A stretch of 56,162 bases of DNA, the filler included, from Sluysia triapertura (Eukaryota), in assembly GCA_046118255.1 (NCBI GenBank). It is 4 parts of 4 records of this genome, joined end to end, with 100 filler letters (N's around TTAATTAATTAA, not from the genome) between each part and the next. Parts side by side here need not be neighbours in the genome. Positions count along the whole stretch, not along the records: positions 20,599 to 31,496 come from JBJNIA010191795.1; 3 more parts are not named here. One strand, given 5' to 3'. The position numbers were made by a program, and so were the translations under genes. Position 1 is the first letter of the stretch; each line of letters begins with the position of its first letter. A model generated the notes under the pieces. It saw only the letters and a list, made by a program, of their open reading frames with translations, was not told the DNA's origin and did no database searches. Positions 2,356 to 55,160 of the stretch are shown piece after piece.

Positions 2356-2427
2356 GGGCTGATAGCTCAGTGGTAGAGCATTCGAACTGCGCAGCGAAGG
2401 TCCCGGGTTCGATCCCCGGTCAGTTCA
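2356..2427 (+). ncRNA. tRNA-like element (probably tRNA-Cys derived) with a non-canonical anticodon arm; possible SINE or element head
   Basis: Acceptor stem GGGCTGA/TCAGTTC, D arm GCTC-AGTGGTA-GAGC (A box), T arm CCGGG-TTCGATC-CCCGG (B box), followed by TTTT. The anticodon region TTCGAACTGCGCAGCGAA does not form a 5-bp stem with a 7-nt loop. Confidence 0.8.
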
Positions 2428-4514: not shown

Positions 4515-6475
4515 GAAGCTGCAACATATGAAGAATATCAAAAAAGTTCAAAAAAATCAATACTAAGACGAATATAATATAAGTTGTATTATAGACTAAA
4601 ATTAAGACGAATGTAAATATAATATAGGATACATAACCACAATATAGAACATACGGACAGTTAGAATTATATAATAAAATGTTATTAACTATTATACGGA
4701 CAAAATTGGCCATGTAGAGGTAAAAATGTAGGGGAATACGATTAAAATGTATATTTTATTATAAAGTAAAATTTTCCAGAGAAAAATTGATTATAAAAAA
4801 TTATTATAGACTTGAAGTGAGAAGGTTTTGGGATATAATGTAAAGTCTGAAAAATGCTATTACGGAAGTGGTTTTCATTATAAATCACAGAAATAATTTG
4901 AAATAATGTAGAGGGTACAAAAATAATTAAGAAGATATTCACTAATATTTGATTGTGAAATTGAAAGTTATTGAGAAAAATAATGAAATAGCATATCTTA
5001 AAATTAAAATTCTGACTAAATTACTAAAATAAAAATGCAAAGTTCGTTTAAATTAGGGTGGTATTTTTATTTTTATCATTATTGAAAATAAACTGTAATA
5101 CATTTAAGCCAGAATAAGTTTAAAATGATTAAAAACAGGAGTTATAAAACTCATAATTGTCTAAATTTATAAATACTCTTAAAGTAAGAGTAAGTAAAAA
5201 TAAGTTTAAATTTTGTAAGTTTAATTTTAAACCAAAGTAATAATTCATAGTCTCTTTATTATATATAAATACTATGAAAAACTGAAGAAGCTCTTAAAAC
5301 CCCGATAGATGCAAATGAACTTAGACACTACCATTAATAATATTTTAAATCCTAGAAGTACATTACACAAGTATTTTTATTTGAAACATAAATTAAACGA
5401 AATTGCACAACCATAGCCAAAGAATCGTAGAAGTAAAATGTACCAGTTACTTCGTGTTGGAGGATATTAAAAATATATTTTTAGATGAAGGATTATTAAA
5501 GTTAAAATAAGAATATAAGAAATATGAAGAAAATATGTTATCAGTCTAAATCTAAGTTCCTTAAAACATGTGGAATTTCGTGTGAACATTACAAGCATAT
5601 TACAAAACGGAATAAAATATTAGATGAAACATATTTACTAACTTAATTGTTTATTTCAAATAGATTTCACTAATTAGGAAGTCGAAATACTGTAATAATA
5701 AAAATACCGAAAATCATGACACATATAGATGATTTAAAAAGAAAGTGAAATATAAAATCAAAAAGAGATTAATACCAACAAAAGAAAAATATTTAATGGA
5801 GCAGGAAAAGTGGATCGAAAAATGCTTTCCTTACAACCACAAAATCTTATAGCAAAATATGCGGTTTTAGTATGTACGGTTGCGACACATTCTATAATAA
5901 GTAGAAATTTTAAATGAAGAACATAGAGAATAATAATAATGATAATAAACAAAGTGTACTATATGTACAAATATTAAAGTTTAAAAAAAGTAAATACTAA
6001 TGCGTCATAAATCTTGCATGATAAAATTGACACTAAAAAAATAAGTTAGAAAAAAAGACACACCGGGATTTATTACAATTAAACAAAGAAAATATAAAAC
6101 CTACAATAGAAAATCTTCTATTATTTATATATTTTATTTCATTTAATTTTGATAATATATATATATATATATATATATTCATATATGATTTAGTATTTAT
6201 CTTGTCTAAATGTTTTTTTCTATTTGTACAAAATAAACGATTTTAAATAATAAAACTATTTAAAAATTAAATTCGTTTACAGTTTAATTATGTAAGCTTA
6301 TTATCAATTTGATAGGTGAAATGAAAATATTTACAATTTTTAAAAGTTACCATGTTTATATATAAATTTCGTTAAATTTTGAATACAAATTGTAACAAAA
6401 TTATTTTATACACTAATATAAATTACTATAAATTTAAAACCGAATTTTTCATTATTTAAAATATTACAAACTTAC

Positions 6476-6761
6476 CTAAAATATAAGCTGCAGCACCACC
6501 ATTTAATCTAATATCCAAATAGGGAAAATCTAAATAGTTCATTTTTTGGCGCAAAGTTATCAGAAAATCTTTTATTGTAATAGACAACGTTGGTTGACCG
6601 CATTCACCGCATATCATAAGAGTAACATTTAATATGTCATCTAATCGACATATTTGATCATAATTTAATATCGATTGATTGCATTCTTTTAATTTAGTAA
6701 CGAACTTAATTGGATTTTCTACAATTATCGAATTTTGAATGGCATTACCACAATTGGTCAT
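6476..6761 (-). CDS. TENT5: terminal nucleotidyltransferase TENT5/FAM46 family, first coding exon
   Basis: ILNYDQICRLDDILN...PTLSI...DIRLNGGAAAYILG matches the FAM46 N-terminal signature (VRLNGxAASxVL). GTAAG donor after 6476. Downstream exons not recognised. Confidence 0.8.
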
Positions 6762-8712
6762 ATTTTTTTGTCAAACAGCAGTAAAATTACTAACCACAAT
6801 TTGTATTTTTAAGGTTATACATTATTAGTAAAAATTCGATTTAATTAATCTGATTGGTTGATATTTAGTGACGTCAGATTTTTAATTATGTATTATATTG
6901 CATACCTAGTTCTTAGTTTGTATATATAGGTAAATTTATGATCTATGTACATTATATTAGTAAAAATAATTGGTATGCGTACTTAAAATATTCTACAATT
7001 ACAACAATATAATTTCCTTTTATAGATGACAGTTCTTTGAAAATACAGTACATATAAACAAAATTAGGAAGGAAGGTCACATTATCTTGTTTAGTTATAT
7101 ATTTGTATTGTAATCACTAAAATAATTCAAATCAATTTATTGAGATTTCATTTATTAAATGACAAAATAGGTATGCCTTTTGTTTATCATTTGTTTAGTA
7201 ATTACCTTAGAAACTGTTTATTTATAAGTATTTCGTTAGTTTATTATGCTATTTTTAGGTACTCTTAATACTTTCTTTAACTAAATTTAGAATTTATAAC
7301 ATTGAAAATGTTTAACTATTGACATTTTACTTTAAAATTTTATTAACATACGTTATATTTTGAAAAGAAGTTTTATATAGTTAGAAATATATTCATTTAC
7401 TTAGTAGAAATTTGGGTAATATCATAAGAATAGATTATTTTAGTTTCTGCTACTGCTAATTTTTAATAATTTAGGATTTTAAATTTAATGGGGAGAAATG
7501 CATACATAAAAATATATTTTAATTTTATTTTACTACTTTTATTAATACATTTTTAAATAAAGTTAAAATATTGAAAGTATTGTTATGATATTTAATTGAT
7601 TCAGATTTTGTTTGAGAGAGATTTACATTTAGTATTTCTTACTGAAATATTGCTTAGTAAAATTGTTNNNNNNNNNNNNNNNNNNNNNNNNNNNNNNNNN
7701 NNNNNNNNNNNNNNNNNNNNNNNNNNNNNNNNNNNNNNNNNNNNNNNNNNNNNNNNNNNNNNNNNNNNNNNNNNNNNNNNNNNNNNNNNNNNNNNNNNNN
7801 NNNNNNNNNNNNNNNNNNNNNNNNNGTTAGAGAGTCAATTTATTAAGGGATTTATAAAGAATTTAAAAAACTCGATTAAAACAAGTCTTTTTAGAAATAT
7901 GGCAGAACAAATTTAGTATATAACTATGAGTTTATACTTGAGAAACATTAAAAACTAAACTCCATTATAATAGGTAATTCTATATTTTAATAAATCATAT
8001 TTTTAGTTTATTTATAAAAAAAAATTTAAATTTTAAATCAATACGAATCGAGATTAAAATGTGATACCTCTAGTGGAAATTATTAAATTTAATAATGGAA
8101 AGATTTATAACCAAAATATACATTTTTATTACTTAAATGTATAGTTGCTCATTTTTCGAAAAAATAAAACGATTATAAATATTAATGATCCTTTTTAACT
8201 GCGATAACGGAAAATCCAGCGGTCAATAAAATATTGCAAAAGAAACACAAAACCAGATAAAGTTTTAACTTATCAAGAATAATCAATTTAATAAAAATCA
8301 AAGTTCAAAATACAATGGTTCGTTTATTTTAAGTGACAATATTTGATTGTCATTTTTATTTTATTCAAATTGTCAATATGCATAATGATTTATTAAATTT
8401 GTGTATTGAACTTGATATTGGTTTATTTTGTATAATTGTTCAATTGCAGTTTTTGTATTTAGGGTTGTTTTAAATTAAAATAGTAAAAACAATTTTTATT
8501 ATTAATTTTAAATTACGTAAAAAATAATTAAATAGTTATGTTACTTAAAGAATAATAATAATTATTATAATAATATATTCGTAAACATTTTTTAATGATT
8601 GAAATATGATATTTCGAATAAACTCTGTTAACGTAGAATAATATTTCATGATTTCGTCGTCTGCATAATAATAATATATAAAATAACCAATTCGGTGTAT
8701 TATTTTCAAATA

Positions 8713-9536
8713 CACTAGAACTCCCAATGTTCCAGTTTTGGGAGTGTTGTCCAATTTCAGAAAGAAGTTAGTTTTAGTTAAAATAAAAGATTTGAAAAAT
8801 CAAACAAGTGTATTTTGTTAACTGTTCGTACATAACTATAGATAGTTACTGAAAATTAGATAATAAATGCATTTCATGCAAACTTAAATAAAGAAACATT
8901 CTCTAAACTGAATAACTAGCGATTTTGTATGCTTTTAAATATTGACTGCTTAACTAAATTTCATTAATATTTAATTTTGCAGTTGGTTGGTGTTTAAACA
9001 AAATAAAATCTTTATTCATATGTTGTGCTGGCTTTTTCTCCTTCCAGTTCATCAGTAACTAACTCATTTGTTGGATACTCGGTTGCCTTTAAAGTGCCTT
9101 TAACAAGATTACGAAGTTACGGCTTTGAAACTTCTGCTTAGCTATTTTTCTTTGCTACACATGTGCTTGCATAAGGCAGTTTTCTGTAAAACAAGGATTA
9201 TTCTCTGACTTTGAGCACAGTCTCAATTGACTTCTCTGATTCATCTGTTCACAATTTTCATTTTGAGCATTTGAACAAGAATCATCTGATTTATTTTCGG
9301 AATCATTAGTTTCTGTTTCAATTCTTTCATCATAATTTAACCATGCTTCAACATCATCAAGCGGATTCATAAATGAGCTATTTTCTGTGAGCTGGCTAAT
9401 TGTTAATGATTTTTCGGTTTATTACTATTTATTACTATCTGTTCTCCAAAAATTATAGTAAAAATATAAGCTACAAGTATGTTCCTGTTTGAGAAAGTCC
9501 CAGTTTGAAAATGTTCCAGTTTTGGGAGTTGTAGTG
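8713..9536 (-). mobile_element. non-autonomous pogo/Tigger-like (Tc1/mariner superfamily) DNA transposon
   Basis: TA target duplication and TIRs CACTAGAACTCCCAA / TTGGGAGTTGTAGTG; subterminal repeat AATGTTCCAGTTTTGGGAGT at both ends. Internal ORF 9155-9370 (DDVEAWLNYD plus acidic tract) resembles a pogo transposase C-terminus. Confidence 0.75.
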
Positions 9537-12002
9537 TATTCACTCTCAATGTGATTTATTTGATATTAAAAGAAATGATAAAATTTACTACTAATAAATT
9601 TAGATTACAAATAATAAATTTGTGATAATCAAATCACCATATTTTTGAATTTAGACTTTATAGTCTTTCCGTCAATAATTGTTTAATTGATCCAACGTCA
9701 TCGATCGAAATTGATAAATGCAGTGTTGATGACTGCAAACTTGATAATTCACTCTATGTATACTCAAGTTTTTTACTTTGTTATTTTTAGTCGATAAAGC
9801 TTATTCTTTATTTTGTTATTATTATCCGTAAGTGTATCATTGTATTTCTCTTCTTCTCTAGTGTGTCACTTATAAATAGGTCTTTGTCATGATGTTTGTC
9901 GGATTTATCCTTAATTATATCTTCATGAAGTTTCAATTCAATTAAAAATTCAATTCATTCAAAATGACACTACGTTCTAATGACGTAGCGCGTTTTTTAA
10001 TTCGTATCTCTTCAAGGTGTATTTACTTATGGATAACAAACAAAAATAATATTTTAACTTACATTTATTACAAAACTTTTACTCAAATTATAGCACGTCA
10101 CGAATAAACAATCACAAATGAATAAAAAGTGAATAAATTATAAATCAAAGAATCACATACCAAAAATATACGTTGTAACTTACCGGATATATTTTTGAAG
10201 TTGTGTCGAAAAGGCGATGACACTGACCTAGAATTTTGTAAATCAACTATTTTTATAATACTTTCTAAATTTAAACTTTTCTGACAGGAAAAGTATAGTG
10301 GATTTCATAGTTAATTTTATATTAGACAATAAATGATTGAAACTAAACATTCGGATAGCTGTAATAACTTAGCTAAATTTAAGTTTAATTCTGTAATTTC
10401 AAAATAACTACTAAATATAAGATCAAATTAATGATTTTCTTATTTTTAACTGGAACTGAATCAATAACTTTAACTAAGATATCTCTTTTAAGCACTGTTC
10501 GATGACCCATGACAAAATTGCCACGATGTAATACATTTATTTGTAGATGTCTTGTTGAAGGTATGATTTAATTAATTTCTCTTATATTTTTATTAACTTT
10601 AGATGTAATTTTTAAATTCTTTGTACTGCCGCACATAAATGAATGATACAGCACGTAATGTGTTAGCATTACTCGAAAGAATAAGTGTCCCTAAAAAATG
10701 TTTTAATAAAGTTTTTGCTAAGGCAAACCAAAATAGTGAACCTCCTTTTAATAAGCTTCAATATAACTTTAAATTCGTTTTATAGATGTTTACAATGAAT
10801 TTTAGCTTATACTATATTTATTTGAGCAGAGGTTCTGCTCTTATTTATGAACATTCAAATCAGGAATTTTAATTAAATCAATAAATTAACTGTTCTTTAC
10901 GGTGGTTTATTAGCACTACTTGAGACCTGTCCTATTATTTAACCTTATGTAGATTACTTCGTTAATTTATTAAATTTAGCTTGTTTTAGATTTAAATCTT
11001 ATCAAAACTAACACTATAAATAACGCTATCAAAATTATACACTATAAAATTATAAATTTACACACTATAATAATAGCAGATAGTAATAGAGAACAAGATA
11101 TACAAATAAATACAGCTTTTATTTCGTTGCGATATCTTCTCACGAAAATAAATAATATGGAAAATAAAAAACCTTATTGTAACTCTTTCAATTCAAAATT
11201 TTAAATTTCGTTGTTTTTATATTTAATAATATAGGTCATTCATAGATATTATCACACAAACAAAAAGAAATATTCTTTTTAGTTACATTAATTTAATTCG
11301 AAAATAAATCAGTATCGACCTAATCATCTGAATAATTACACATTCAGCTAGTGTAACACGACGACCAGCAAATCAAAATCTAAAAAATGAACTAAGCACT
11401 ACAGGAATAAGAAACAGATCAGTAGTGTTTAATTTCACAATAATCTTTTATCACATAAATTCCTTTCATTGTAATTCAAATACTATTCATCAATATTAAG
11501 ATACTATTAGTATGTAAATGATTAGTAAATAATTTTTCATCTGTTAATTCCTTGTTTAACTATTATGCAAATTTTATTGAACTATTTTGTAAATTTTGTA
11601 AAAATATTCATTTCTATTGAATAACAAAAATGTGTAAGCTGCATATGATAATCCAATTTCTAAACTTGCTAATTTCAATTCTATTAATGATGATGAATCA
11701 TGAGAAATAATAATTAATACTAATTGAATTTGAATCGAGACAAAATCTAATTCACTACCAAACATAACTACATCTCACTTTGATATTTATGGTGAATTTT
11801 CTTTAGGCAGTCATATTAATTTCATTTATTTAAACAAAAACAAATATTAAATATTTTAAATTTTACAAAAATTTTATTAATATTTAATACAAAAATATTT
11901 ATTTACAAAATTAGAATTTTGAATTTAATGTTTTTTTTAAATTTATTAAAAAATTAATATTTTAAATATTTTATTTTATTGCAAGATTTTTTGTTGTCTT
12001 AC

Positions 12003-12080
12003 GAATAAAAAATGAATGAATATGGTGAATTCACCAACGTACCTAGTCTTTCCGGTTAGGATTAGCCGTTGGGTTTCTAA
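12003..12080. repeat. dispersed structured repeat, copy 1 (copy 2 at ~14673)
   Basis: AATAT.GTGA.TTCACCAAC...AGCCGTTGG shared with 14673-14750. Confidence 0.7.
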
Positions 12081-13652
12081 AAGTAAACAAATGTTGGAGG
12101 TCAACTCGTAATAGATGCAATTAAATTTTTAAAAGTTTGTGATATCTTCCTTAAGATTTAAATAATATTATAATCGTATTACTTAGAATTGTACAAATGC
12201 CGGAGGAATATAATATTATTTATAATTCTTAGTAACAAAATTAATTAAACAGTAAAGACTCGATTATGAATGTATATTAGGTATCACAGTACAAAATTAC
12301 AATACAAAATATAAAATAATATAATAATTTACAATATAAACTTAAATGGGTTAATATCCAAAAATGATTTTGGTAGTTACTTTTCGTAAAAACCTTCTAA
12401 ATGGTTCTATAAATATATGTAATAATGATTTTAAGTAAATTTTACGGTGTACCTTAGTATAATACTAATAAAATAAACTAACGACAGATTAAAACTTTGA
12501 TTAATTATCGAAGGATCAGTTCCACCGAAATTATGCCAAATTAGAAGTCATATATTGAAATTGTTGTAAAAATATATTAAAATTCAATTGCTATTTATAC
12601 AAATTTGTAGAGCTGACCTTGACTTTATTTTAACAAATTAATTTATTTAGAACAAATTAATAATATTTTTTAACAAAAATGATATTAAGATCAAAATAAT
12701 TACATTAAATTAAATTCAATAATAATTCAAGATAATCAGATGTAAAAACTTTTAATAAATAATGATTACTTACATTAAAAATATTTCCAAAGTTTTGATT
12801 AAAATTGACTAAATATTATACTAAATATCAATGCAAAAAATTCTAAATATTAATCCAATATTACAAGTAACACACAATACGCAAGATCAATCAATAATAT
12901 TCATTTATAACATATATAATTATGAATATTTTGTAACAATTAACAAGAAAATTATTTTTATTTTAATGGAAATTTAGTATTAGTTAACGCTGTACATTCG
13001 GATTTTTGGTAATATTTAAAAAGTTTTAAGAAGCTAAAATTTATTTAACAATTTAATATTGTGTGAAGATAATTATTCAGCTAAATTAAATTATATTCAA
13101 ATTAAAATAGTAAAATCCTTAAATAAAATCATAATAATCACGACCAGTCTTATTATTTATGTCGCATTTATATTTCATATTAAATATAATCTATAGTACT
13201 AAAAGGCATTAGATTTAGACTCTGTAAATCCAAACTCCATATTTGAAGATGTTCTTTAATTGTTATAATCGTCGTGTAAGCCATTAACATTTAATTAATA
13301 TTTTAATAATTTATATCATTATTATTATTTAATAATAATTATTATAAAAAATAAAATTGGAGCTGTAGGCCTAACAAATGCAACTAAAAGTTGTTTAAAT
13401 GATTACCATGAAAATAAATTATTAGATTTGGCTGATACCTCAAATGATTAGAACATCGAACTGTGTTAAAAGTCCAACATAGCAGTATAAGTGAAGCATA
13501 AAAATATAATTAATTAATATCTGTTAAATGTAGTAAGTTTCAAGGGATTTTATAACTTGTCAAAATTAGTATCATAATCCCAGGTAAAGTATGTTTATTT
13601 TTTAATTCTAATATAAAATAATACCAAAACTAATTTTTAATTTTTAATATAG

Positions 13653-14672: not shown

Positions 14673-14750
14673 GAATAAAGCAAATGAAAATATCGTGAGT
14701 TCACCAACCTACTGGACTTACCAGCGAGGGCCAGCCGTTGGATTTTAACG
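14673..14750. repeat. dispersed structured repeat, copy 2
   Basis: Homologous to 12003-12080, same orientation. Confidence 0.7.
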
Positions 14751-17700
14751 TGAAGAAAAGATGCTTTAATAAAGTCTCAAAACTAGAAATCTGGAAGTAA
14801 TTTAATACTATTTTAATTTTTCCTATTAACTTAAAAATGATTTTGCATGAATCCTATAATAAGGATTCTTTAATTTTTAATTAAGAATTATCTTTAAATT
14901 ATATAAGTCAAGTCGTTTACTTCAGGAAAGTTTATTATACAAAATGTAATAATAAAAATACAAATTTTGCACAAATTACCAACGTAATTTTTTAATATCG
15001 ATATAAATTTTAAAAAAGGATTTTAATCTAAGATCATAAATATTAGATTAGTAAATTTTCCTGGATTATACACTGATATTAAATAATATCAACCTTAATA
15101 AAAAATAATCTAACGTTGACAGATAAAAAATCGTCTTCTCTAAAAAATGTGAACTAAATCTTCTTAAATTTCCAAAAAATGATTTGCCAAAATTTATTCA
15201 CCGAAGTTTAAGTTATTCATTTAAAATTTTATTGTTACCAAAACCGATTTACCAAAAATTTAAAATGTTGAGACTTCAATTTAAAATTTTTATTGTTCTC
15301 TTTTTTTGAAAATTGCGGTTCCTTATATAGTTTTTTAACTGTCAACCTTGACATAGTTTAAAATTTAGAAAAGTAAAACAAAATTTTAAAATATTAATTA
15401 AAAATGAAATATTACTTTAAAATTAAAATATAACTTACTATAAATTAATTAAATTTCATAAATATCTATCCAATTAATCAAAATTTAAAAAGGACAAAAT
15501 TTCAATAATTATAAAATCACTCATAAATTGATCATTGATTCAAATACATCAANNNNNNNNNNNNNNNNNNNNNNNNNNNNNNNNNNNNNNNNNNNNNNNN
15601 NNNNNNNNNNNNNNNNNNNNNNNNNNNNNNNNNNNNNNNNNNNNNNNNNNNNNNNNNNNNNNNNNNNNNNNNNNNNNNNNNNNNNNNNNAATAAGATTTT
15701 ATTACTAAATATTCATATTTAACGTTGCTCCTATTCGGAGAAAGCAGAAGAAATAAATCATAAAACTACCTTTCAGAGACAATCAATATTATTTATTTCA
15801 ATATATGCGATCTTGTTTTAAAGTTGTTTTATTTTCATTAAACATTCATAGCTAGATATTCCTTTAATAAGTTGTTATTAAGTTATTAAATGGTAACAAT
15901 TTTTTATTAAAATTCTACAAATTTAATATATTCATTAATTATACAAGTGTGATGCTTTTGCAAAGAATATTCTAAAGTAAATAAAACATAATTCCAAATA
16001 AGAACGTTAAGAATGTGTTTAATTTTAGAATACTATTGAAATGTGCAAGTATGTAATGCTAGGGTTTACGACGTATCCGTAGGCTTTATAAAAAAATTTA
16101 AAAGTGATGGTCTACGTTACCCTTACTTTTCTTTCTTAGTTTAATTTCTATAACTCATTCCTCATGTCTCTTAAATCCTCTTATAAATACTTTATAAATT
16201 TACTTTATTCTTAGATAATTAACACATTATGAGCGGGGCGGGTATTAGTACCCGTTTTATGTACTGTCACTTAAGAATACCTGCTCCTTTTATAGCTGAA
16301 CTTAGAAAACAAATTACAGCTCTTTTACATTAAGGATTATAGACTATAACAATCTAGATGAATTTTTATAATTTTTACTTCAATTTAATTATTATACGAC
16401 AGTTTAAATGTTTAATATTTATAATTACCTTTTAATTACAACTCGTTTCTTTTAATTCAATTACTTTCAATTATCATTAGGTAATTTTTTGCAATCTTTT
16501 CTTTTCAAAATGAATATACAAATTATATTTTCAATAGTAATATATCCAAAATTATAATAAAACAATAGATTTTCACTAGAAATATTTTTTCTAGAATAGT
16601 TTTTAAAGATTTTAAACAATATGTTTTATCTAGCTAAAACTTTATAATAAATTAGTGATTTTTAGTGTATTTTATGTCTCCGTAACAGAGACAGATTCTA
16701 ATACAAATTGCAAAGCCAATAATTTCTTCAATCAATATTTTTCAAATGTGGAAAATGCTAGTAAAATTAATGTGGTGGCCAACCCAATATTTTAAATTTT
16801 TATTTCAATAACACACAATAAAATCACTAGTCAAAATATTTTGTAACTCCTAATACTCCTAAACATAAAATTACATAACATCAAATTCACATTCAATATC
16901 GAAAATCATCAAAGATTTACTTTAAAACTTAATTCATAACAGTAAAAACTTAATTCAACACATTTCACATAAAATCACATTCCATGACATTTCAACAAGT
17001 CTAACATCTAAACTTTTCCTTATTTTATTTTCTCTACTTCCACTAAACCTTGTTCTAATCTTTTCAAAACATTCCTATTTTATAACCTAATAATATTAAA
17101 ATTACAGTTACTATCAGATTAATAATAGACATTTAAAAAATTCATTTAAAACATTTTACTCACTGCTCCATAAACAGCATAACAATAATCACATCTGTTA
17201 ACATCTTACAACTACCTCGTAGAATCAATCAAAACCGTTGATATATTTCATTTCAACTAAAATTAGTCTCCTTTCAAAATGTCAACAGCAAATATACTAT
17301 TCAAAACCATTCATGCACGTTAGATTTTACAAAACATTTTATTCATGTATATTTAAACTTAAGAATTTTAAATATGTCAAGAAAAAAGTTTCAATAACAG
17401 AAAGATCATGTTTATTATACTGAAAAGAATTTATGTTTTTACTTTATTGTATTATTATTTTTTAAAAAAGAAGTTAACTATCTCATCATTATCATATAAC
17501 TATTATTATTGTAGTGACCATTTTTATTGTCATTTTATTTACAGTCATTGTTATTGCTTTCCTTACTATTAAATTTGGCTACCTACCACTGCAATCTGTA
17601 ATCATTTGACGGATTTATTAATTTAATTTTTCTATATGTGATTTGGTGTAATTGTATTGATGACGTGTGCTGGTCACATTGTTTAGTTGTTACATACTGT

Positions 17701-18000
17701 ATCAAATCTCTTCTAATTGGACATCCAATCATGGATAGATTTATTTTCGTTGCTTATCAATTACTTATTGATGTACAGATTGGCCAATCCCTGCTAATCA
17801 TCATAGTGATCGCGATTTTACAGATAGCTTTTTGATTACACTGAAACGGAACAAATCGTTTTATTAAAAAACTTAATTTATGTTAAAAAATCGAGAATAT
17901 AAAAGATTTCATTTACAAAAAGATAATCAGAAAACAAATTGAGAATTTTCACTGTTAAAAATTTAAAAGACTGATAAAAGTGTAATACACTATTTCAACA

Positions 18001-19227
18001 ATGACAACACTCGTAACTAAAATATCTGAACTCTTAGATAATATTTCTAAATTAAAATGGTCAACACCAGCTCAAATTCAACAACATGCTATACCATTAT
18101 TACTGAAACATAAAGATGTTATTGGCTTACCTGAAACCGGCAGTGGAAAATCTGGTTCCTACTGTATTCCAGTTATTCAACAATGTTTAGATAACGGTCA
18201 ACCATTAATATTTGATTCCCGCAGTTGAATCAAGAGTATGGTGAATTAATAAAAATGAGTGAAGGATTAAATCTGAAAATAATGCGTTTAACTGGAGATA
18301 TAGATATGACTGATCAATTAACAGACTTAGTATTTCTGGTGTTCACATTATAGTAGCAACTTATAGTGTAATTTTAATGATGATTGATCACACTAATCAA
18401 AATAAAAAAACGTTTTATTCTTTTCAACATTTTGTAATTGACGGGGCAGATAAAATGATCAGTTATCAATTAGATGAAGACATTTAGAAAGTTTTACGAA
18501 TTATATCACCCAAATCAAGCAATAAAATCAAGAAAAAAAATAAAAATATTTTCAGACAAACACAAATTTATTCAGCAACATGTTATGGTGAAGTGGAAAA
18601 GAAGTACGGATTTTTGTTACATGATCCACAATTTGTTAATGTCGCATCAGTAAATAATTTTCCAACACAGTTGAAACATTATGATTGTGTTATACCAAAT
18701 GATGATAGAGAAAAAGATAATTTTAGAGTAATATGCGAAACATTAATGTATTGCACTGATAATACCTACCTATCTAAAGTTTTAGTCTTTGTTAAAGATT
18801 ATCCGGATACTTGGTATTATGAATCCATTATAAATAAAATGAATATTAATGTCATTTCAGCAGTGTGTTCGAATTCCAGAACGCTTCCCCAAAAACGAGA
18901 AGAAAATATGAATATTTTCAAATCGAGTGATGCACATGTTATGTTTGCTACTGAATTTGACAGTGTAGGATTAGACGTTGAAGATATTGATTTGTTTGTC
19001 AATCTGAATGATCCAGAAAATGTTAATGCTTAACGTCACAGAGTTTATCGATTTCCTGAAAGTGAAAAGTATTTCGTTGCGATGGGAAAGAAATTTTTTT
19101 CACTTACTGTAAAAGACATTGATTTGTTAATCATTATTAATAATCTCAATAATCTACGATCTAAAAAATCCAAACAAGAATTCCAAACCCGGACATCAGA
19201 AATCATTCTCTGTTTTAAATCTCAATA
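18001..19227 (+). pseudogene. intronless decayed DEAD-box helicase, DDX47/RRP3-like
   Basis: Q motif and motif I (LKWSTPAQIQQHAIP...DVIGLPETGSGKS); DEAD changed to DGAD near 18440; QIYSAT motif III; VMFATEFDSVGLDV motif V; TAA at 19031 just before RHRVYR (motif VI); several frameshifts and stops. Confidence 0.8.
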
Positions 19228-20498
19228 AACATTATAAGACAGTGTTATGTCCGTATATGATTACTCAATCTGGTAAATGTCAATGATACACTACAAAATT
19301 TAATTACTTTCATTCCGTTAGTGAGCTTGATCATCGTGACAGAATAAATGACTTATTGGCAACTCTAGATACGTCTTCTCCAATACAGTATCAATCTACA
19401 AAAGAACTCAAAGCGTCCACCAACAATTCCACAAATATACAATTAGACGAAGTTTTACCTGATAACATAAAAATAATTTTTAAATATCACTTTATTGATC
19501 TTAAATTAACCTCTTTATTTTATTTATTTCGTAAAAATTGTGTTTTATCCAAGTGGCGTATTCGGAAATCAATCAATGTCAAACTTATAGTTTTTAGTTT
19601 TATTAATATAAATAAATCATTTTTCGTTGTTTTTTTTGAATAAATTGAAAACATTGTATTTATTGAAGATAAATATAGACTTAATTTTTTATTTTGTAAG
19701 ATAAAGGTAAATTTTAATAAAGTAGATAAATTTTTAATAGTTTTTATTGTGATTAATAAGATAATCAACTTCAAACCATCACAGTTAACAATTAACAATA
19801 TTGTACTCTTTAATTAATCAAACTAAACGATGATAGTGAAATTAATCTTCAAAAGTAATACTGAATTCTTAGTCACTCAGAACTAGAAAATTCTTTGACG
19901 ATGTATATAAAAATCTTTTAAAAGAATATAATTTTAAAACTTTTAATCAGTTTTTCTTGTTATCGATGGAAGCATCGATAACATTCCATCGATTTTCATT
20001 GGCTGATGAATAGTATATAAACTAGCATCAGTTTAATGAAAATCGCCATTTTAATTAGTTTAACAAAATTCAGCGTCGTTTGCAAATAGTCAGTGTACAT
20101 CACCGCCATTTTGAATTTATTAGTCAATTCATTCAGTATTCTATCAGATCAGTTTCAAGCCGAATTGGAGTTTTTAATCGATTTCCATGCAAGGAGATTT
20201 TGACTTTCATATAAGTCAAAATCATAAAATACAGGCAAAATCAAATTTAAACATTATTATTGTAAAGATCCCGATATATTGATGGAGAATCATCTACTTA
20301 ACTTTAAATAGAAAACAAAGCAAATATTCCAAGAAAGGATTTTGATTTTGAAATCTAAGTTTTGTTTTTGATTTCTACTGTTTTTATTGTGCAACATCTT
20401 AAAATTTTGTTAATTTTTTATTGTTATAATTTTCTTAAATGAAATATTTTATAACAATTATAAAATTTAAACGGGTTCGTCTGTAGTCTACGATTTAG

Positions 20499-20598
20499 NN
20501 NNNNNNNNNNNNNNNNNNNNNNNNNNNNNNNNNNNNNNNNNNTTAATTAATTAANNNNNNNNNNNNNNNNNNNNNNNNNNNNNNNNNNNNNNNNNNNN
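20499..20598. other. artificial contig spacer N44-TTAATTAATTAA-N44
   Basis: Identical 100-nt construct at three places; the 12-mer has stop codons in all six frames. Confidence 0.9.
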
Positions 20599-25917: not shown

Positions 25918-26739
25918 TTAGTTTTTCGATTTTTTAGCTTTTGACTTCACTGATTCTTCATTCAGTTTTCTTTTAAGGTTTCTTTTTTTACCATTTGAAT
26001 TAGATTTCCCATTCTAAACAGTAAAAACATTAATACAAAAGTAATACTTCAAGATTTTTAATTTTATCTACTGAACTACTAGTTTCTACTAGTTGCAGTT
26101 TACTTTCGTTTTCAATTAATTTCATTTCTGATTCGATTGATTTAGCATATTTCTAAATTCGTAAATTACAAAATAATTAAATTAAACTTGAGATCCTTTC
26201 TTAAGTGCAAAATTTAACTCAACTTTTACTCCATTTAATTTAATTCTATTTTCTAAAAATGATTTCTTCGCTTCCTTTTCGCTGTGAAACAATAGATAAA
26301 AGTATCCTTTGGATGACTTATCGGAATTTTTAGGAAATTTTAATTTTGCATTTGAAAATAAATTCAATATGTGTATTTCTTTAGTATCAGGATGAAGTCC
26401 AGAATAATAAAGAGTACATAGATCAAATGCTTTAAGATCTGTGTAACTGGGTGTTTTTTTTACTGGAGAAATTTGGATGTTTTTACCGCATAACTTCATG
26501 TTATTAAGCTTTTCGATATTCTTGTTAAGTGACATTTCATCTTTAAACTGTACAAATGCGTAATCACAATTCTTCTTGGGGATCCGGCAAATGTGCATAT
26601 CAGGTATTAATTCTCTAATTGTTTGTTCGGTTATTCCTTTAGGTAATCTTTTTATAATTACAGTATTTTCATTTATTAACTTTAATCGACGATTAATTTC
26701 ATCAAGTAATTCACCCTCTGAAACATTATTAACATCCAT
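25918..26739 (-). CDS. two-RRM RNA-binding protein with Lys-rich tail (nucleolin-like); exons 26739-26188, 26152-26048, 26013-25918
   Basis: RNP1-like DYAFVQF and KGYFYLLF, RNP2-like VIIKRL and LYYSGL. Introns of 35 and 34 nt (GT-AG) keep the frame open to TAA. Confidence 0.8.
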
Positions 26740-27462: not shown

Positions 27463-28339
27463 ATTTAAATGCTTCTCTGTTTAAATTTAATAAAATTTAA
27501 TACTATCATGTATATTAATTGTGAAAAATTAATTTTACCACTTTTTTAACGGTTGAATTTTCGATGAATAGGAAAATTATAATTCTAATAAAAATGTGCA
27601 TCTAATGAAAGCGTAATTTTTACTTAAAGTATGTTCTTGCACTTCGTTTAAATAAATATTCTTGCATAAAATAGCGAAATGGATTTGAATCATTTTTAAA
27701 TAAACAAAATATACATTTTCGTAAGCTGTAATTTAAGAATATACTTAAAGTATAATATACTTTCAGTAGGAATTGTACTTTACCTGAGCTTAAATTTTAT
27801 TTTTTGTATTCGTACACAACTTCAAAAAATTTACCCTTAGGGATTTTACCTTTAATTAAAAAAATTACCCTTAAATTTTTTCTAAATTACCTATTAAATA
27901 AATTAAAAATAAAAATAACTTCAATAAATTCAAATAAAATTAATTTGTACAAATGTTCATTATTGAAATATTGTAATTGTAATAATTATTTAGATTTCTC
28001 TTTATTACTTTCATAAGTGATGTTTTAACCTTAAATTTTACCCTCATGTTACAAAAATTATTAAACTAACTTTATTAGATTTGTAATATTTTACTAGAGC
28101 GCAATCACTCGATTTAGGACCGTCATTTAGCTTTAAAAATAATTTTGGTAAGTTTTACTTTTTATAAATTCTATCAATCTTATCGCTTCATGATTAATCA
28201 CACTATAATGGAGGTTAATTCAGAAATTGCTTCTGATCGTAGAGATAGAAGCACAAATTTTAGTAGTTAAATCAAAACAAATTAACATTTAATCCACTAC
28301 GGTATACTTATTAATAAAATAAAATTCAATTTGTAATTG

Positions 28340-29030
28340 CTATGCTAGTATTTTCCTATACTCAAGCAAATTATCTGAAGAGTCGATCCGCCTAATATAT
28401 ACGTTTTACACCAAGATTGGAGACGTATTATTAGGATTTACTATAATTTCTTATATTTAGTACTTACCTAACACTTTAACTTACAGAAAATTAATTAATT
28501 AAATTGATTTGAATTTTATTTATATCTTACGCAAACCTTTTTATAGTGTTGCTTATGAAAACTGTTTTTATGAATTTAGAATTTGCGCAACCCTTTTTAT
28601 GGTGTTGCTTTCAAAAAAAAGATTTTAGATTAATAACAAAAACTTGACAAAAATTCCTTAAAATGTATTATAATACAAAGTTTAGAACTTACAAAAAATA
28701 ACTTATAATAATAATAAAATTTTATTATAATTGGTAGTTCTTTATTTTAAATGAATGTTTCGCAACCCTTATTAAGGTGTTGCATTAAAATGAGTTTGAG
28801 TGGATTTTAGGTTTCCTTTCTTAAAGTGAAACCGTATAAACCTATAACAATAATAAGTACTTGTTTATCATGGAAGTGAAAATTTTTTATTGAATTTGCT
28901 TCTGAAACTTTATTGAGTTAAATCTGAAAACTTTATTGTCCTTTATTATTAAAAAACTCACCTATTTATACTTGATTTTAATTCCAAAATGTCTTCCTAT
29001 TATTTAAATTAGTTTATTCAAACAAATTTT
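28340..29030 (-). repeat. conserved non-coding module with three bulged hairpins (28531-28552, 28587-28608, 28762-28783); homolog at 54490-55160
   Basis: Minus-strand GCAAC-A-CC-WTAAWAA-GG-GTTGC x3 (one copy degenerate); collinear shared blocks with the 54.5-55.2 kb region. Confidence 0.75.
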
Positions 29031-29402
29031 AATAATTTCTTTATTATTAATTTTCTTTATTTTTAAGATTTATTAATTTCATTAATTTAATTTTTCTTCA
29101 ATTTAAATTAATTTCAATTCCATTTATTATTTTGAAATTATTTTATATTTTAAACATATTTACTTTAATTTATTTAATATAATAATAATAAATATTTAAT
29201 AAAAATAAAAATATATAATTAAACACAAATTGCATAAATTAAATAAATAAACACAAATTGCACAGATTAAAATTAAAACCTGACAAATACTTCCTTTTTC
29301 GGGAAGATTCGTCCACGAATCATTAAATCAAAGTTATCAATATAATATTATCAATAATCAAAGCTATTTATTATGATAATCACATTATTATAGATGTCTA
29401 GT

Positions 29403-30900
29403 CTAAATCGACTGGTCATCATCGTCTAATAGGTAGTCATAGCGGTACAGCACGTGGGTTTTCTTGTCGTCGTGGAACTTCTGGATCGACAATGGCCGTA
29501 ATTTTTCTGTAGTAACGGTCCGGAGACTCGAATTAGATGGTACTGGTATTGTTGATGTCGTTTGATGATTCAATTTTGATGGCGTTGTTACTGGCGGTGT
29601 GTTGGCTGATGGATTAGTAGTAATAGACTTTGTTAAAGAAGAGATCGAAAAAGAGGAAGAAGTAAAATAAGGATGAGTGACCTTTATTTTTTTAAGAGGA
29701 GGAGAAATACATCGTTGATGACTAGTAGGTTGTGGTTTACAAAGAGCGGAGGGTTGTTTTTCAACACGATATAAATTGTACGTCGCGTTCCCTTATATAA
29801 TCAAGTAAGGTCACCAATTTCGTGGCCATTTGTTTACAAGTCATTACTGGACAAATAGGAAATATTAATCGCAGCGTTTGACGCGCTTTAGGAAAAAGAT
29901 CGTCATCAGAGAATGGAATTAAATTGTGGTTGGATAGGTTAATAATTCCCCTTAGTAGTCCGAAAGGAATACTCAAGGAATCGATAAGAAATTTTGGATT
30001 CAAAGCTACTAGAATCTTATTACATAGAATCCCTATCAACTGGGTACGGACGTCATTGATATCTTTGGCCAACCTAAGGTCGGCGTCCGTAACAGTCTGA
30101 ATATTTCTACGGAAATTCTGGATCCGACAACGGGGTTTTACCCGAGCCTCGGTACGAAACTGGCGGCTGTACGGAGTACAGGTCACACAGATCAATTGTG
30201 GTCTGTTGAGGCAATCCACAGCATATTGAAATGCTACAAACATGAGTCGGTCCTCATCATATGTGGACAAAGGCGGGACGTGTGTATATGATGAACCGCT
30301 CTTCCATCGACTCATTTTGTCTAGATCCCCGCGAAAGGAAGGAAAGAAGGAGAAAAGAGTGGTTTTAGAGGCAAAACAAAAAGAAGGGAAATGTACGTTG
30401 GAAATTCCATCGCCTCAACCGTAACATTACAATCCTTAGACAACTCCGAAAGATGAAGAGTTGAGAAGCCCTCTAAACGCATTACTAAAGGGGTATTTTT
30501 TATTGTCAACGTTATTTTAACTGTGCCTCGCGTGGATGCTGTATACAGGGTGTTGAAATTCTCCGGTGCGCTGGCCATATCGTGTAGTGACACACTTGGT
30601 GCTTTTGCCGACAAAGGAAAGATATGGGTTGCCACATTGTCCGTTATTTCAGATTTCAATTTACAATCTGTGGCGAAAGAATTGGGAAAGAATTGGGAAA
30701 GAATTGGGAAAGAAAATAGGAGAGGAAAGTTCAGCACAGAATTTATCTAAGGAATTATAGAACGATTTAATTTGATGAATTGTCTTAACTTTGACTAGAG
30801 ATTGATGTGGGATTGGTGTTGGAGTTCTAATAAAGAGAATTACAAGTATATAAAAAATGCATAAAAATATAACAAAACACACAAGTAATTATTATTTCAT
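29403..30900 (-). pseudogene. frameshifted ~490-codon intronless ORF chain; N-terminal hydrophobic anchor or signal, Cys-containing middle, S/T/P-rich C-terminus; family unknown
   Basis: Four overlapping same-strand frames: 30882-30661, 30737-30321, ~30414-29761, ~29791-29403. Visibly GC-richer than the flanks. Confidence 0.55.
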
Positions 30901-30938
30901 ATATATATATTCAATTTTGATATAATACATGATGATAT

Positions 30939-31421
30939 TTAGGAGATAGTTAATGTTGTTTGAGAAAAGGATTTTTTTCTTAACCACTCATTTTTCTTAA
31001 AAAACTTTTTAAGTTGGCGTCGTCTATAATTACGCCTTTGTGATTTTGTCAATCCTCTATGGTAGTCAGGTTTCGGAACCTCAAACCCATTATATAGAAC
31101 GTTAGCTTCAAAAAAATTGCTTGGTTGATAAATATCAACAGTAGCATTCTCCTGGAGCCCATGGTAAGCTGCAACAGGAGATGAGTTAGGTTTAATATAT
31201 TTGACAGAAAATTCGTAAGACGTACGAAATGATTTTTTAAAGAAAATATCACATTCTGTGATCGTGGCGCGGCACAAAGGACAAGAGGGTAAAGGAGTGG
31301 GAGCAGAATCAAACAAAAAGTATAGACATCGAAAATGAAAGCGATGTCTACAAGGTATTGCAATAGAGTAATATCTATGTATTGATCTTTGACATATGGA
31401 GCATAAAGTGAAACGTAATTG
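30939..31421 (-). CDS. RING-H2 zinc-finger protein with basic C-terminal tail (open frame lacks an ATG before the RING)
   Basis: Extending the listed ORF upstream gives CSIC-x13-CRHRFHFRC-x14-CPLC, a complete C3H2C3 RING-H2; tail SQRRNYRRRQLKKFFKK. Confidence 0.75.
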   Translation of the reverse strand, partial: QLRFTLCSICQRSIHRYYSIAIPCRHRFHFRCLYFLFDSAPTPLPSCPLCRATITECDIFFKKSFRTSYEFSVKYIKPNSSPVAAYHGLQENATVDIYQPSNFFEANVLYNGFEVPKPDYHRGLTKSQRRNYRRRQLKKFFKKNEWLRKKSFSQTTLTIS

Positions 31422-31436
31422 TTAGACTTCGTAAAA

Positions 31437-31496
31437 TGGACTGACCGGGGATCGAACCCGGGACCATCGTCTGCGCAGTCGATATGCTCTACCACT
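31437..31496 (-). ncRNA. second tRNA-like element, 5'-truncated by the contig end
   Basis: Reverse complement AGTGGTAGAGCATATCGACTGCGCAGACGATGGTCCCGGGTTCGATCCCCGGTCAGTCCA-TTTT, near-identical to 2356-2427 outside the anticodon arm. Confidence 0.8.
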
Positions 31497-31596
31497 NNNN
31501 NNNNNNNNNNNNNNNNNNNNNNNNNNNNNNNNNNNNNNNNTTAATTAATTAANNNNNNNNNNNNNNNNNNNNNNNNNNNNNNNNNNNNNNNNNNNN
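31497..31596. other. artificial contig spacer
   Basis: N44-TTAATTAATTAA-N44. Confidence 0.9.
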
Positions 31597-33102: not shown

Positions 33103-42829
<9,727 letters not shown>

Positions 42830-44558: not shown

Positions 44559-44658
44559 NNNNNNNNNNNNNNNNNNNNNNNNNNNNNNNNNNNNNNNNNN
44601 NNTTAATTAATTAANNNNNNNNNNNNNNNNNNNNNNNNNNNNNNNNNNNNNNNNNNNN
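44559..44658. other. artificial contig spacer
   Basis: N44-TTAATTAATTAA-N44. Confidence 0.9.
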
Positions 44659-45189: not shown

Positions 45190-47087
45190 CCAAAAACTAT
45201 TTAAATCATAACTAACACTTTTGCGTTTTCGGCTACTAAGCCATTGACCAGAAGTATCTGGTTCTTTTTCAGAACTAAAAGGTTGACCTTCTTCGATTAC
45301 AAAACGAAAATCTTTCAAATAATCACCACCGTTACTTGTTGATCCCAATATCCATTGTAAAATCATCCAAAATCTTTCAATTTCTGTCAAAATTAATGCA
45401 TTAAATTTTAAAGGCTTTTCGGAGTTTTCCAAATTATCATTTTCATCGTCCAAAGAAATTATATTTTTATTCAAGGTTTCTCCTTTTCTTTCTAAAACAG
45501 CATCTATATCATGCTAAATAAGTAATTATAAATTTTATATTTTATAAATATTCGCAGTTTGAAAAACATTTAATGAAAAAATAAGCTCACTTATCATAAA
45601 ATAAAATGTGTTACCTGAGTAATATTAACTTAATATTTTATTTTAATGTGACTTATTGTCCCTGTCCAATTTATCGAAGGTAATAATTATCGTAACATAA
45701 TTTAACTTTGTTGCGTCATTTACAGACAACATTAGGTATTATCAAATATCGCAATAGATTAAAATATACATGTCCTTCAAAACAATAAATCTAGATAACG
45801 TAACTATAAACGCGATGATTTACATTAAAGATGATCACATATAAATACACATAATATAGTATTTGCCATACGATCAGACTACCCAGAGAGAGATCATATG
45901 TTCTAAGTCAGTCCATATTATGACTTCTAACATTTGGTAAACCCACATATCGAATAATCCTTCTAATGTGAAATTAATGAATTAAATCTTGTTTGGGCTC
46001 AATAATAATTGAAATGGGAAAATGTCTTCAGATATAAGTTTGAAAATTGAAATTAAAAATGTATAAGTGAGAAAAATGCTAGTAAATTATAAAAATGGGC
46101 TGAATTTTTGTTGGAAATATATGAATATAAATATTTATTTCGATAGAGAAATAGCAGATATTAAATTCTAATAATGATAATAAAAATTGTAATAAGTACA
46201 ATAATCAATAATAATGGTAATATAATAATAAAAATAACAATAATACTGCAAATTTATCATTTATATTGCATGTTTTTATTTTAATACTGCCTTTACTCAG
46301 AATTTTATCATTTATTATATTTTATGATCTTCTAAGTGCTTAATAAACTATGTCGATTTTAATTTTCAATCTTCAACTTTATTTTGATTTACCCCTGGTA
46401 GTGACAGCTAAATACGTCTTTTGTATTAAAGATAGAAGTACAAATCTGAATCGTCAATCTATAATTAGAACTCTCATTAAAAAATAAAGACGAATTGACA
46501 TTTATTACGAAATAACAAAAATAATAAACTACAATGAAAACGCCACACGGAATTAGTTTTTTAATCTAATATTTTAATTTCATATTATTTATTTAATTTT
46601 AAATAGTGTACTAAAGCATTTATCAAATACTAAAACATTTACCGATTTCATGGTTCAAATAATCAAAAGATGTCTTCGGCAAATCGAAGTTAGAATAAAT
46701 CAAAATCAGATGCTTTTCCAACATACATCCTCTCCAAATCAATCAAATGTTTCTTCAGATATTATTTCGTTATTAAACTTATTATGGTGAATCACATCCT
46801 CATTTAGTGATTTATCTAACTCTTTTATTTGGCCAATTACCCATTCCATAATAATTTCCCTATTCGTTAATTTCATAATTAATTTTCTTTTTAACCAATT
46901 TCTATGTATTTTCTTAACCTGTCTTACTTTTTCTATAATTTAGTTCTGTATATAACACAGATTTATATTGTTTTTACAATACTAACAAAATAGTTAAAAA
47001 ATAATTATAATTAATAATAATAATAAATAATAATAATTTTAATAATCTATTATAAATAGAAAATTTTAATTAAAAAAACTTATTATT

Positions 47088-53369: not shown

Positions 53370-53480
53370 CATAATAATAATAATATATTAATTTATATTG
53401 TGCTCATATTTACTACGTAAGTACTCAAGATTCATAATGATTCATAATATTTCTGAAACAGAAAGAACTTTGCCTTTTTC
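53370..53480 (-). mobile_element. short 3' LINE fragment, same family as 38555-38800
   Basis: Shared ~100 bp including the AAT tail. Confidence 0.6.
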
Positions 53481-54217
53481 TTACATATTTATTTTATAAG
53501 AAATAAATTAAATGCTAATTATATAAAAATAAAAATTTGTAATTGAAGCTTAATATTTAGAATATTTGATACACAAATAAGTGATTATATTCGTGAGTTA
53601 ATTCGTTTATAAACTGAAAGAGATATTAAAATAAATAGAATTTATATTTCGATTTTGATTTGGTCAACAAAATAAATTTTTTTATTTACAAATTCAAAAT
53701 ATAAAAGTGTTAATACGAACCAAAAATTAATACATTAATTATGATTTTAAAAATCATAATGTTCGGTTTACTGAATTACCCTATACGTGCAATGTTGTTG
53801 CTAGTTAGTAATGCACGAGAAAGCGAAAATCATATGGACAAAAACTTAAAAGTAAGAATACTTTTTAATTATTTATGAAACAGTTTAATGAGCTATGTGA
53901 CTAGATATTAGTATTATAAAAATAAAAAAATACAAATTACTATGATGAATTATATTTCTTAATCAGTTATGTTTATGAAATATTTAAAAAACAATAAAAA
54001 ATTAAGATGCGAAGAGAAAACCATATATTAGGTCTTACTTCTGAAAATATTAATATGCATTTGTTTATTAATTTAATTAAAAATTGTTATTATTTGGTTG
54101 CTTTTTAAATTGAGACTTGTTTTTAAAGGCATTAATCCTGTTTTACTTCTTAATTTGTTATGTTGGAGTAGCGATAACATATTAACAATCATTATTTATT
54201 GACAAACATTTTAATAA

Positions 54218-54365
54218 ATCGATATTTTATTCATTAACTATTTCGATATTTTATTTATTCATTAACTATTTATTTATTTTATTCATCAATTATCTATTTA
54301 AAGTATTTATTTATTTTATTCATCAATTATCTATTTAAAGTATTTATTTATTTTATTCATTAATT
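54218..54365. repeat. local AT-rich tandem duplications (~28-40 bp units)
   Basis: TTATTCATCAATTATCTATTTAAAGTATTTATTTAT x2 and TCGATATTTT...ATTCATTAACTATT x2. Confidence 0.7.
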
Positions 54366-54489
54366 GTCTAATTACAAAAAACTATTTCATTTTTATTTTT
54401 ATTATTTATATTTTATTATTTTATTATTTATTATCTAAATAATATTATTATTATAAATCAAAATCTTTCTGTTTATAAAAATTACAAAT

Positions 54490-55160
54490 TGTTTAAATAA
54501 AGCAAATTGTTTAAATAAATCAATAAACAATATGGAAGACAGGTAAAAAAATAATATAAATAACCACAAAAAATTCAGAAAAACACACACAGAACGACGA
54601 CAGCAGTGACAACAACGACAACAACAGAGGAAAAGAAAACTTGAAAAATCAATTAACAGTATTCCATGAAAAAGTACTTATTTATTAAATAAGTTTTACG
54701 TTCTAATTGTAAAGAATAGAACTAAAATATTACTTAAAATCTTTATATATATGTCAGACCGTAAAAAGGCTGACTTAAAATCTTAATAAAATTATTTCAA
54801 TCTAAGCAAATAGGCTTAAGATTTAAATTGAATATTTTTATTATTCTAAATATTGTCATTGAATATTTTTTGATTTAGTAATAAAGTTTTGATTAGTTAT
54901 TTTAAGTATTTGTTTAAAATCTTTATATTTTGGCCAGACCGTAAAAAGGCTGGTTTAACTGAGTAAGTTAAGTTTTTTCTTTTTACTTATTTATCGTTCT
55001 ATAATTTATAAGGAAATAGTTGGTCTAAGTCACTTATATTAATCCTTTTAAATCTATTTTTTTATAAATCTAATTGGGACGTCATCTTTTGATATAAATC
55101 GTGCCTAATTAGTCGGATGGACTCCAGATCCATTTTGCATATAGGGAAATATCTTGCAAT
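54490..55160 (+). repeat. conserved non-coding module with two bulged hairpins (54753-54774, 54933-54954); diverged homolog of 28340-29030
   Basis: GTCAG-A-CC-GTAAAAA-GG-CTGAC and GCCAG-A-CC-GTAAAAA-GG-CTGGT, each preceded by TAAAATCTTTATAT. Confidence 0.75.

Follow-up and report, generated by a model that had tools for sequence, protein, structure and literature searches.

The window, a 56,162-nt stretch of Sluysia triapertura DNA (assembly GCA_046118255.1), is AT-rich animal nuclear DNA with about 17–38% GC per kb. It holds intron-containing genes for a USP-type protease, an UNC-45-like protein (best matches 55% and 53%, in a nemertean and a beetle), an AMP-binding enzyme and a DEAD_2 helicase, together with two opposite-orientation copies, A and B, of one element of about 950 nt that carries an array of small bulged-A hairpins (Table 1). 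An intronless two-RRM ORF (26182–26739, minus strand) sits between the UNC-45-like gene and copy A, and a DEAD-box helicase at 17986–19228(+), which is spread over several frames and lacks obvious introns, is likely a processed pseudogene. The N runs at 20499–20598, 31497–31596 and 44559–44658 have an artificial 12-nt linker mid-run, which gives rise to false inverted repeats.

Upstream of copy A, the GC-richer ORF cluster includes a RING finger (Pfam E 6e-08) and a 184-aa ORF that a protein atlas links to RNase_T exonucleases (DEDD-like; score 0.93), with a catalytic motif that appears degenerate when read by eye. The 184-aa ORF has no homologue at E 1e-3 and no PHROG or PDB sequence match, and its single-sequence model (pLDDT 36) is unusable; the 141-aa ORF has no usable protein-atlas match. 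An 11-nt tandem repeat at 30675–30714 shifts the frame within the cluster, which is either candidate element cargo or a spliced host gene. The ORFs adjoining copy B are without a Pfam match, as is an open frame on the minus strand at 55427–55536, where the plus strand carries seven copies of a 12-nt-period tandem repeat 270 nt past copy B. Other repeats occur at a distance from the element. A tRNA-headed, SINE-like repeat with a shared 3′ extension is present at 2356–2523(+), 31420–31496(-) and 45877–46024(+), its 31.4-kb copy abutting the start of the RING ORF and the gap in the window. A second small family at 12003–12096(+) and 14673–14763(+) (57 bits) has a CCAAC..GTTGG stem with a changed inner stem; it is unrelated to the end block of the element, and its fold z-scores are not significant. 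Two copies of a repeat of about 105 nt, each preceded by (TAA)n (38592–38700(+) and 53371–53475(+); 82 bits), are possibly the tail of a minus-strand retroposon.

The hairpins follow one design, N5-A-CC-N7-GG-N5′, in which a 5-bp stem with a bulged A is continued by two C-G pairs and closed by a 7-nt A-rich loop. All five that the original prediction had named, on the minus strand in 28531–28783 and on the plus strand in 54753–54954, are present where and as it gave them; the spacing of 175 versus 180 nt is borne out, and the TAAAATCTTT motif it had placed upstream of three copies lies 8–9 nt upstream of three of the five. Minimum-free-energy (MFE) folding predicts the same design for each of the four intact copies, whether RNA or DNA, with z-scores of -2.2 to -4.3; the fold of 28762–28783 adds two predicted loop pairs to it. 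As had been anticipated, the motif exceeds its shuffled expectation within the window, with three matches under strict Watson-Crick pairing and four when G·T is allowed, whereas 300 local dinucleotide shuffles average 0.05 and 0.15 and none exceeds two; this significance is overstated, since the search pattern was drawn post hoc from these same sequences. A covariance model of the five hairpins finds no further convincing copy in the window. Its next match (21.7 bits, E 0.034), at 14847–14866(+) and about 100 nt past the 14.7-kb repeat, is a perfect hairpin with CC/GG closure, an 8-nt A-rich loop and no bulge. Just upstream of copy A, at 29290–29322(-), there are two adjoining perfect hairpins, one with CC-N7-GG closure and an A-rich loop and without a bulge, which have no counterpart upstream of B.

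Table 1. Features of the two element copies and the adjoining ORF cluster (positions along the window).
Feature	Position	Strand	Remarks
Element copy A	28342..29285	(-)	about 944 nt; end at 28342 sharp, end at 29285 a candidate
End block of A	28342..28440	(-)	long interrupted stem at 28391-28435, then conserved GC-rich motif and small terminal hairpin
Hairpin A3, degenerate	28531..28552	(-)	one T·G pair and one mismatch; 34 nt past A2
Hairpin A2	28587..28608	(-)	hairpin form with the deepest coverage (120,014 at 28585)
TAAAATCTTT motif at locus A	28618..28627	(-)	9 nt ahead of A2
Hairpin A1	28762..28783	(-)	5-bp stem, bulged A, CC/GG, 7-nt loop; pattern search and predicted fold
Conserved block upstream of A1	28784..28875	(-)	TTCCATGA..AAGTACTTATT; 26.3 bits
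AT-rich tandem repeat near upstream end of A	29208..29271	(-)	28-nt period; segment homology to B 26.5 bits
ORF cluster upstream of A	29403..31421	(-)	GC-richer, overlapping, co-oriented; RING finger, exonuclease-like ORF, two orphan ORFs
Element copy B	54200..55158	(+)	about 959 nt; end at 55158 sharp, end at 54200 a candidate
AT-rich tandem repeats near upstream end of B	54226..54374	(+)	28- and 37-nt periods
Conserved block upstream of B1	54662..54752	(+)	homology to copy A
TAAAATCTTT motif at locus B	54735..54744	(+)	8 nt ahead of B1; second copy at 54915-54924 before B2
Hairpin B1	54753..54774	(+)	pattern search and predicted fold
Hairpin B2	54933..54954	(+)	outer pair G·T
End block of B	55065..55158	(+)	long interrupted stem at 55070-55112

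Copies A and B have the same order of blocks at near-equal distances. With composition-aware scoring, their end blocks align over 95 nt at 40.2 bits against a background maximum of 19.7 (0/668 pieces as high), and this score is the same after the hairpins are removed; the homology is therefore independent of the hairpins. The block before the first hairpin and the AT-rich upstream part (scores in Table 1) are likewise matched by no background piece (0/654 and 0/520). The two linkers stand at background similarity (78/662 and 138/664 pieces score as high), as does the far-upstream sequence (121/342), and no alignment continues past 28342 and 55158 (531/564). The candidate 5′ ends of the two copies are not alike, 1435 of 2202 random pieces scoring as well. 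The homology rests on composition-aware scoring and blastn; the link is not significant by nhmmer (E 0.23–0.25), and a plain-score alignment reaches 60 against 63 for AT-rich background. The hairpin is shared by the two loci through descent, not convergence.

The original prediction described the stems at the two loci as completely different, which overstates the exchange: three of the seven pairs are changed on both sides, two are invariant and two vary on one side only, through G·T. Pairing is kept in 34 of the 35 cells in the alignment of the five copies, and the bulge, the CC/GG pairs and the loop length are kept in 5/5. Only two of 500 shuffles score as high in covariation, a figure that is not a probability, as the copies are related and related sequences can beat such shuffles. 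The five copies represent only two lineages, so that they amount to about three independent double changes. Among 40 of the 45 variants in contigs aligned to locus A, 33 fall in 28342–28900, and none of these lies within the 66 hairpin bases (3.9 expected, p ~0.016), which is weak evidence because a contig whose hairpin is altered has a lower chance of aligning. These limits lend something to a reading without structural selection, in which template switching at replication restores pairing in the palindromes of an amplified repeat, and the bulge is passed down from a common ancestor; two lineages with so few double changes would suit it, and the missing variants are partly a matter of ascertainment. 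Template switching, however, tends to erase a bulge, yet here the bulge persists in every copy with its C-G pairs and loop length, a second stem in the same element covaries, and the modules persist while the linkers decay. We consider this reading very improbable. The predicted selection for a single-strand structure in repeated elements is supported: stem pairs are swapped while the bulge, two C-G pairs and A-rich loop persist, and compensatory changes in the second stem add further support. The packaging or localisation role proposed with it has no support, and recognition during transposition fits better.

That second stem is the long interrupted stem of the end block, which forms in the predicted folds of both copies (z -2.8 in A, only -1.6 in B). 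Beside an ACG/CGT core common to both copies, B has G-C in place of two A-T pairs of A and G·T in place of a third. Three more double changes appear among the outer pairs in one register, yet those pairs are identical when aligned by sequence, and only two double changes are therefore counted. A variant at 28404 (55% of depth) turns an end-stem A-T pair into G·T on the minus strand, and G·T pairs are found on the minus strand of A and the plus strand of B in A3, B2 and the end stem of B; such pairs cannot tell RNA from single-stranded DNA. Upstream of A, the ORFs are encoded on the same minus strand as its hairpins. The strand carrying the described hairpins (minus in A, plus in B) is likely the folded strand. 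On the opposite, plus strand, however, the end stem of A is more stable (-15.7 against -13.1 kcal/mol), and a degenerate hairpin among the contig joints would also pair better on the strand opposite to the described hairpins. A six-codon likeness (ESIRLI) on the opposite strand of the end block was dropped; the frames are short and the commonest variant changes the likeness.

Contigs of one public run, aligned to locus A only, give a picture of abundance, with the proviso that summed contig depth is not copy number. The flank of locus A has a median depth of 22, most bins lying at 20–50 and a few AT-rich bins reaching up to 591. Beyond the sharp end of the copy, depth falls to about 100 in 28222–28300, and one contig is identical to the flank up to 28382 at depth 14.9. 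Within the element, mean depth is 178,114 in 28380–28458 (end-block peak 226,356), 8,159 in the linker, 66,098 over hairpins A2 and A3 (28538–28616), about 5,500 around A1 (28696–28853) and 500–1,600 in the upstream part (28854–29150). Hairpin and end-block depth over the flank median thus comes to 5,400–10,300, or 176–331 after an up to 31-fold overlap correction; contigs with the main variants average 75–115x flank depth, and the run has about 500 loose-end groups. The hairpin and end block are present hundreds to thousands of times, the upstream part of A itself in 1–70 copies, and the linkers are family-specific and 10–100x less deeply covered than the modules. The sequence is very probably a high-copy dispersed repeat, and probably a mobile element. 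Of 12 contig-joint rows out of 26, eight imply tandem hairpins with differing spacers of 17–35 nt, and one joint leads from 28789 back to 28352, which fits a head-to-tail arrangement. A T run on the plus strand (an A run past the core) lies 20–30 nt outside the core in two loose-end groups, whose agreement is low (0.52–0.57). A mitochondrial minicircle or NUMT was rejected on two grounds: no ORF looks mitochondrial (table 5), and many hairpin joints lie near single-copy depth.

The ends of the element carry no clear marks of any class tried. The homologous ends of A and B, the 5′ ends being uncertain, have no target-site duplication (TSD), and neither sharp end is followed by a clear poly(A) or tandem tail. 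End-to-end inverted alignment is at background (471/994 in B, 466/994 in A), showing no terminal inverted repeats (TIRs), and a 9-mer scan with alignment finds no subterminal inverted repeat of at least 11 bp pairing the two ends, again with uncertain 5′ ends. The hammerhead core CUGANGA..GAAA is absent from either strand, with no Rfam match. ARAGORN and Rfam find no tRNA-like head in copy A or B; neither copy has an A/B box pair, and A alone has one isolated B-box-like match. In Rfam the best match of locus A (E 0.69) is below gathering, locus B has none at E 10 and the window yields only the tRNA at 2356–2427, which agrees with the prediction that the hairpin is not an IRE or histone stem-loop and extends to SECIS, snRNA and ribozyme families. 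Likenesses to U2, U5, the histone stem-loop, twister and HDV seen by eye have no Rfam support. Pfam detects no RT, endonuclease, Rep/helicase, integrase, GIY-YIG or other transposon domain in 17 + 6 + 88 ORFs, drawn from 159 of at least 55 aa with gap-spanning and most 55–59-aa ORFs excluded, and a six-frame motif scan of the window finds no RT or other transposon domain.

A non-autonomous rolling-circle element, Helitron-like and of the HINE/DINE-1 type, would make the hairpins single-stranded DNA signals for a Rep/helicase, repeated through read-through and nested ends. The lack of a TSD, the internal tandem repeats, the structure kept under sequence change, the possible head-to-tail joint, the captured-looking neighbouring ORFs and the T run at two loose-end groups are consistent with it. 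HINEs, as portrayed in part of PMC4067079, have tandem repeats, a T-rich target preference and no TSD, and outnumber their partners; HINE/DINE-1 Helentrons and HLE1 Helitrons, in the sections of PMC4067079 and PMC11417382 drawn on here, are like the repeat gene-less, abundant and free of TSDs, with internal tandem repeats and hairpin signals. In contrast to the elements of those sections, the repeat has no 12–15 bp subTIR pair and no hairpin-CTRR end, and its hairpins are internal, repeated and all in direct orientation. CTRR followed by T within 24 nt occurs at none of the five hairpins on either strand (the end of A has CTAG but then C, that of B CTTG), no inverted repeat of the length sought joins the ends, and no Rep/helicase was found in the window. 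A rolling-circle origin appears rather unlikely.

The same unit could be drawn as an LTR: B would be a solo copy, A would be the 3′ LTR following a set of accessory ORFs, and the hairpins would be repeated U3 motifs that precede a conserved promoter/terminator block. Both copies can be bounded by TG and CA at similar lengths (TG at 29285 and 54200, CA at 28342 and 55158; 944 and 959 nt), which is not statistically special. A purine tract stands 4 nt before TG in A, and TATAAA lies within the end block of B and, through the commonest variant, that of A. In the portion of PMC5408684 used here, rotifer LTR elements carry DEDD exonuclease ORFs after pol. In Sirevirus LTRs a conserved TATA box is preceded by multiple palindromes, with structure kept and sequence not (parts of PMC2829016 and PMC4728375); as in the repeat, a series of short palindromes that differ in number and sequence from family to family precedes a TATA-like block in a unit of about 1 kb. 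As those parts describe them, the Sirevirus motifs are symmetric CGG-CCG palindromes of plant copia LTRs, whereas the hairpins here are asymmetric with a fixed bulge and the LTR boundaries are only candidates. The TG..CA ends have no TSD, the 5′ ends are no more alike than random pieces, six similar purine tracts precede TG in the window and no TIR rises above background. Only about 65 nt follow the TATA-like motif, and the search of the window gave neither gag nor pol nor a PBS, the part holding A ending at the gap at 31497. We hold the LTR assignment to be unlikely.

The failure of the element at the end tests of every transposon class tried, and the lack of an Rfam family, would also suit a signal of the host, chromosomal or regulatory, or else a novel class of mobile element. 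Selection would then be maintaining structured modules by the thousand in unrelated flanks, perhaps after an old element was domesticated to provide signals for replication, rearrangement or the fate of mRNAs. The modules alone are conserved, with linkers at background similarity and 10–100x lower depth. However, a collinear unit of about 950 nt in opposite orientations, with a variable number of hairpins and a sharp end, has the look of a dispersed transposon; there is no gene-position pattern, and no gene can be recognised upstream of B on the strand of its hairpins. Such a host signal or new class is improbable. So too, in its fuller form, is a new animal element class or domesticated chromosome-wide signal with bulged-A hairpin arrays, an end stem and stem-swapping subfamilies, for which the upstream RING and exonuclease-like ORFs would be cargo.

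Our preferred explanation, held tentatively and at somewhat less than even probability, is that the hairpins serve, in RNA form, as recognition signals at the 3′ end of a family of non-autonomous retroposons, which would be copied by an RT encoded elsewhere in the genome. We infer such a trans-mobilised 3′ end from the sharp, structured and most abundant end, the fading other end, the lack of terminal repeats and the strand polarity. The strand of the described hairpins would be the transcript, and the long stem in its last ~95 nt would mark the start of reverse transcription. One to several bulged-A hairpins upstream would bind an element-encoded protein by shape, that is by the bulge and A-rich loop, which would let the stem sequence drift between subfamilies with pairing kept; that a protein binds the hairpin is itself an inferred step. 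Copies would be truncated on the 5′ side or have diverged there, and the likeliest partner would be a non-LTR or Penelope-like element.

In favour of a retroposon 3′ end, abundance climbs toward the 3′ end of the strand carrying the described hairpins, a sharp structured 3′ end with 5′ fading is observed (divergence could mimic truncation), and contigs contain tandem hairpins and the one joint fitting a head-to-tail pair. Against it, no RT or endonuclease was found in the window and no clear tail or TSD at the copies, the depth gradient is equally explained by faster divergence of the upstream parts, and the end stem of A and one degenerate joint hairpin favour the opposite strand.

Known retroposons offer partial parallels. 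A bulged 3′-tail hairpin is needed for retrotransposition of the UnaL2 LINE, as reported in part of PMC1636434, and the conserved 3′ tail of UnaL2 and UnaSINE shown there is, like the hairpins here, a bulged stem-loop near the presumed 3′ end that is kept across related elements. The LINE tails in the cited extracts have one hairpin at the very end; here there are several, 150–420 nt upstream of the end. In contrast to UnaL2 and UnaSINE as those extracts present them, one to several identical small hairpins lie that far upstream of a separate long end stem, with a 7-nt A-rich loop and not GGAUA, no terminal tandem repeat and no RT ORF seen. Naiad Penelope-like elements, according to portions of PMC8557442, are 5′-truncated, form partial tandems, lack hammerheads and often have no discernible TSD, and in invertebrates their copies can number tens of thousands. 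Together with the non-autonomous Chlamys of the same portions they share with the repeat a 3′-biased copy number, a very high copy number and, going by one contig joint, possibly partial tandems, and Naiads resemble it in having no hammerhead and often no discernible TSD. Unlike the Penelope-like elements of these accounts, the repeat shows no RT or GIY-YIG ORF and no telomeric repeat at its end, and the sections of PMC8557442 and PMC6431247 cited here do not mention repeated bulged hairpins. Accessory DEDD exonuclease ORFs are carried by Terminons too, in a section of PMC6431247.

The coat-protein operator hairpins of MS2 and PP7 have a short stem with a bulged A, topped by a small loop. The hairpins here may be likened to these operators in the bulged A, a likeness that is one of form; they differ in their 7-nt A-rich loop and their place in an animal nuclear repeat. 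Viral, metagenome and phage collections yield no phage or viral relative of the repeat. The hairpin pattern occurs at at least 120 viral loci and the end-block motif at four; none of these 124 has the A-rich loop context or flanking homology, and the best BLAST match among them is the 19-nt motif itself. Two metagenome matches lie within bacterial-looking coding sequence, and five short phage BLAST matches have E 0.05. The viral, metagenome and phage matches are all taken as chance. Four exact 22-nt strings and descriptions of the repeat have no match in the literature searched; supplement libraries or Repbase/Dfam could hold the family. The repeat is uncatalogued and assigned to no family. 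Hairpin signals in transposon ends are already well known; what is new is a shape-conserved array of bulged-A hairpins with a separate end stem and without clear end marks of any class tested.

As it stands, the finding is of interest mainly to specialists in transposons and RNA structure. If the retroposon reading is true, the repeat would be an unclassified, very abundant mobile element whose subfamilies show which features of a cis-signal are read (the bulge, two C-G pairs and A-rich loop) and which are free (the stem sequence). Its thousands of natural variants would form a test set for the recognition of template shape by transposon proteins, and the end block would serve as a probe for the autonomous partner. 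Should there be no partner and the copies prove fixed, the evidence would instead point towards a signal of the host or an element class not yet described, a result of much greater weight.
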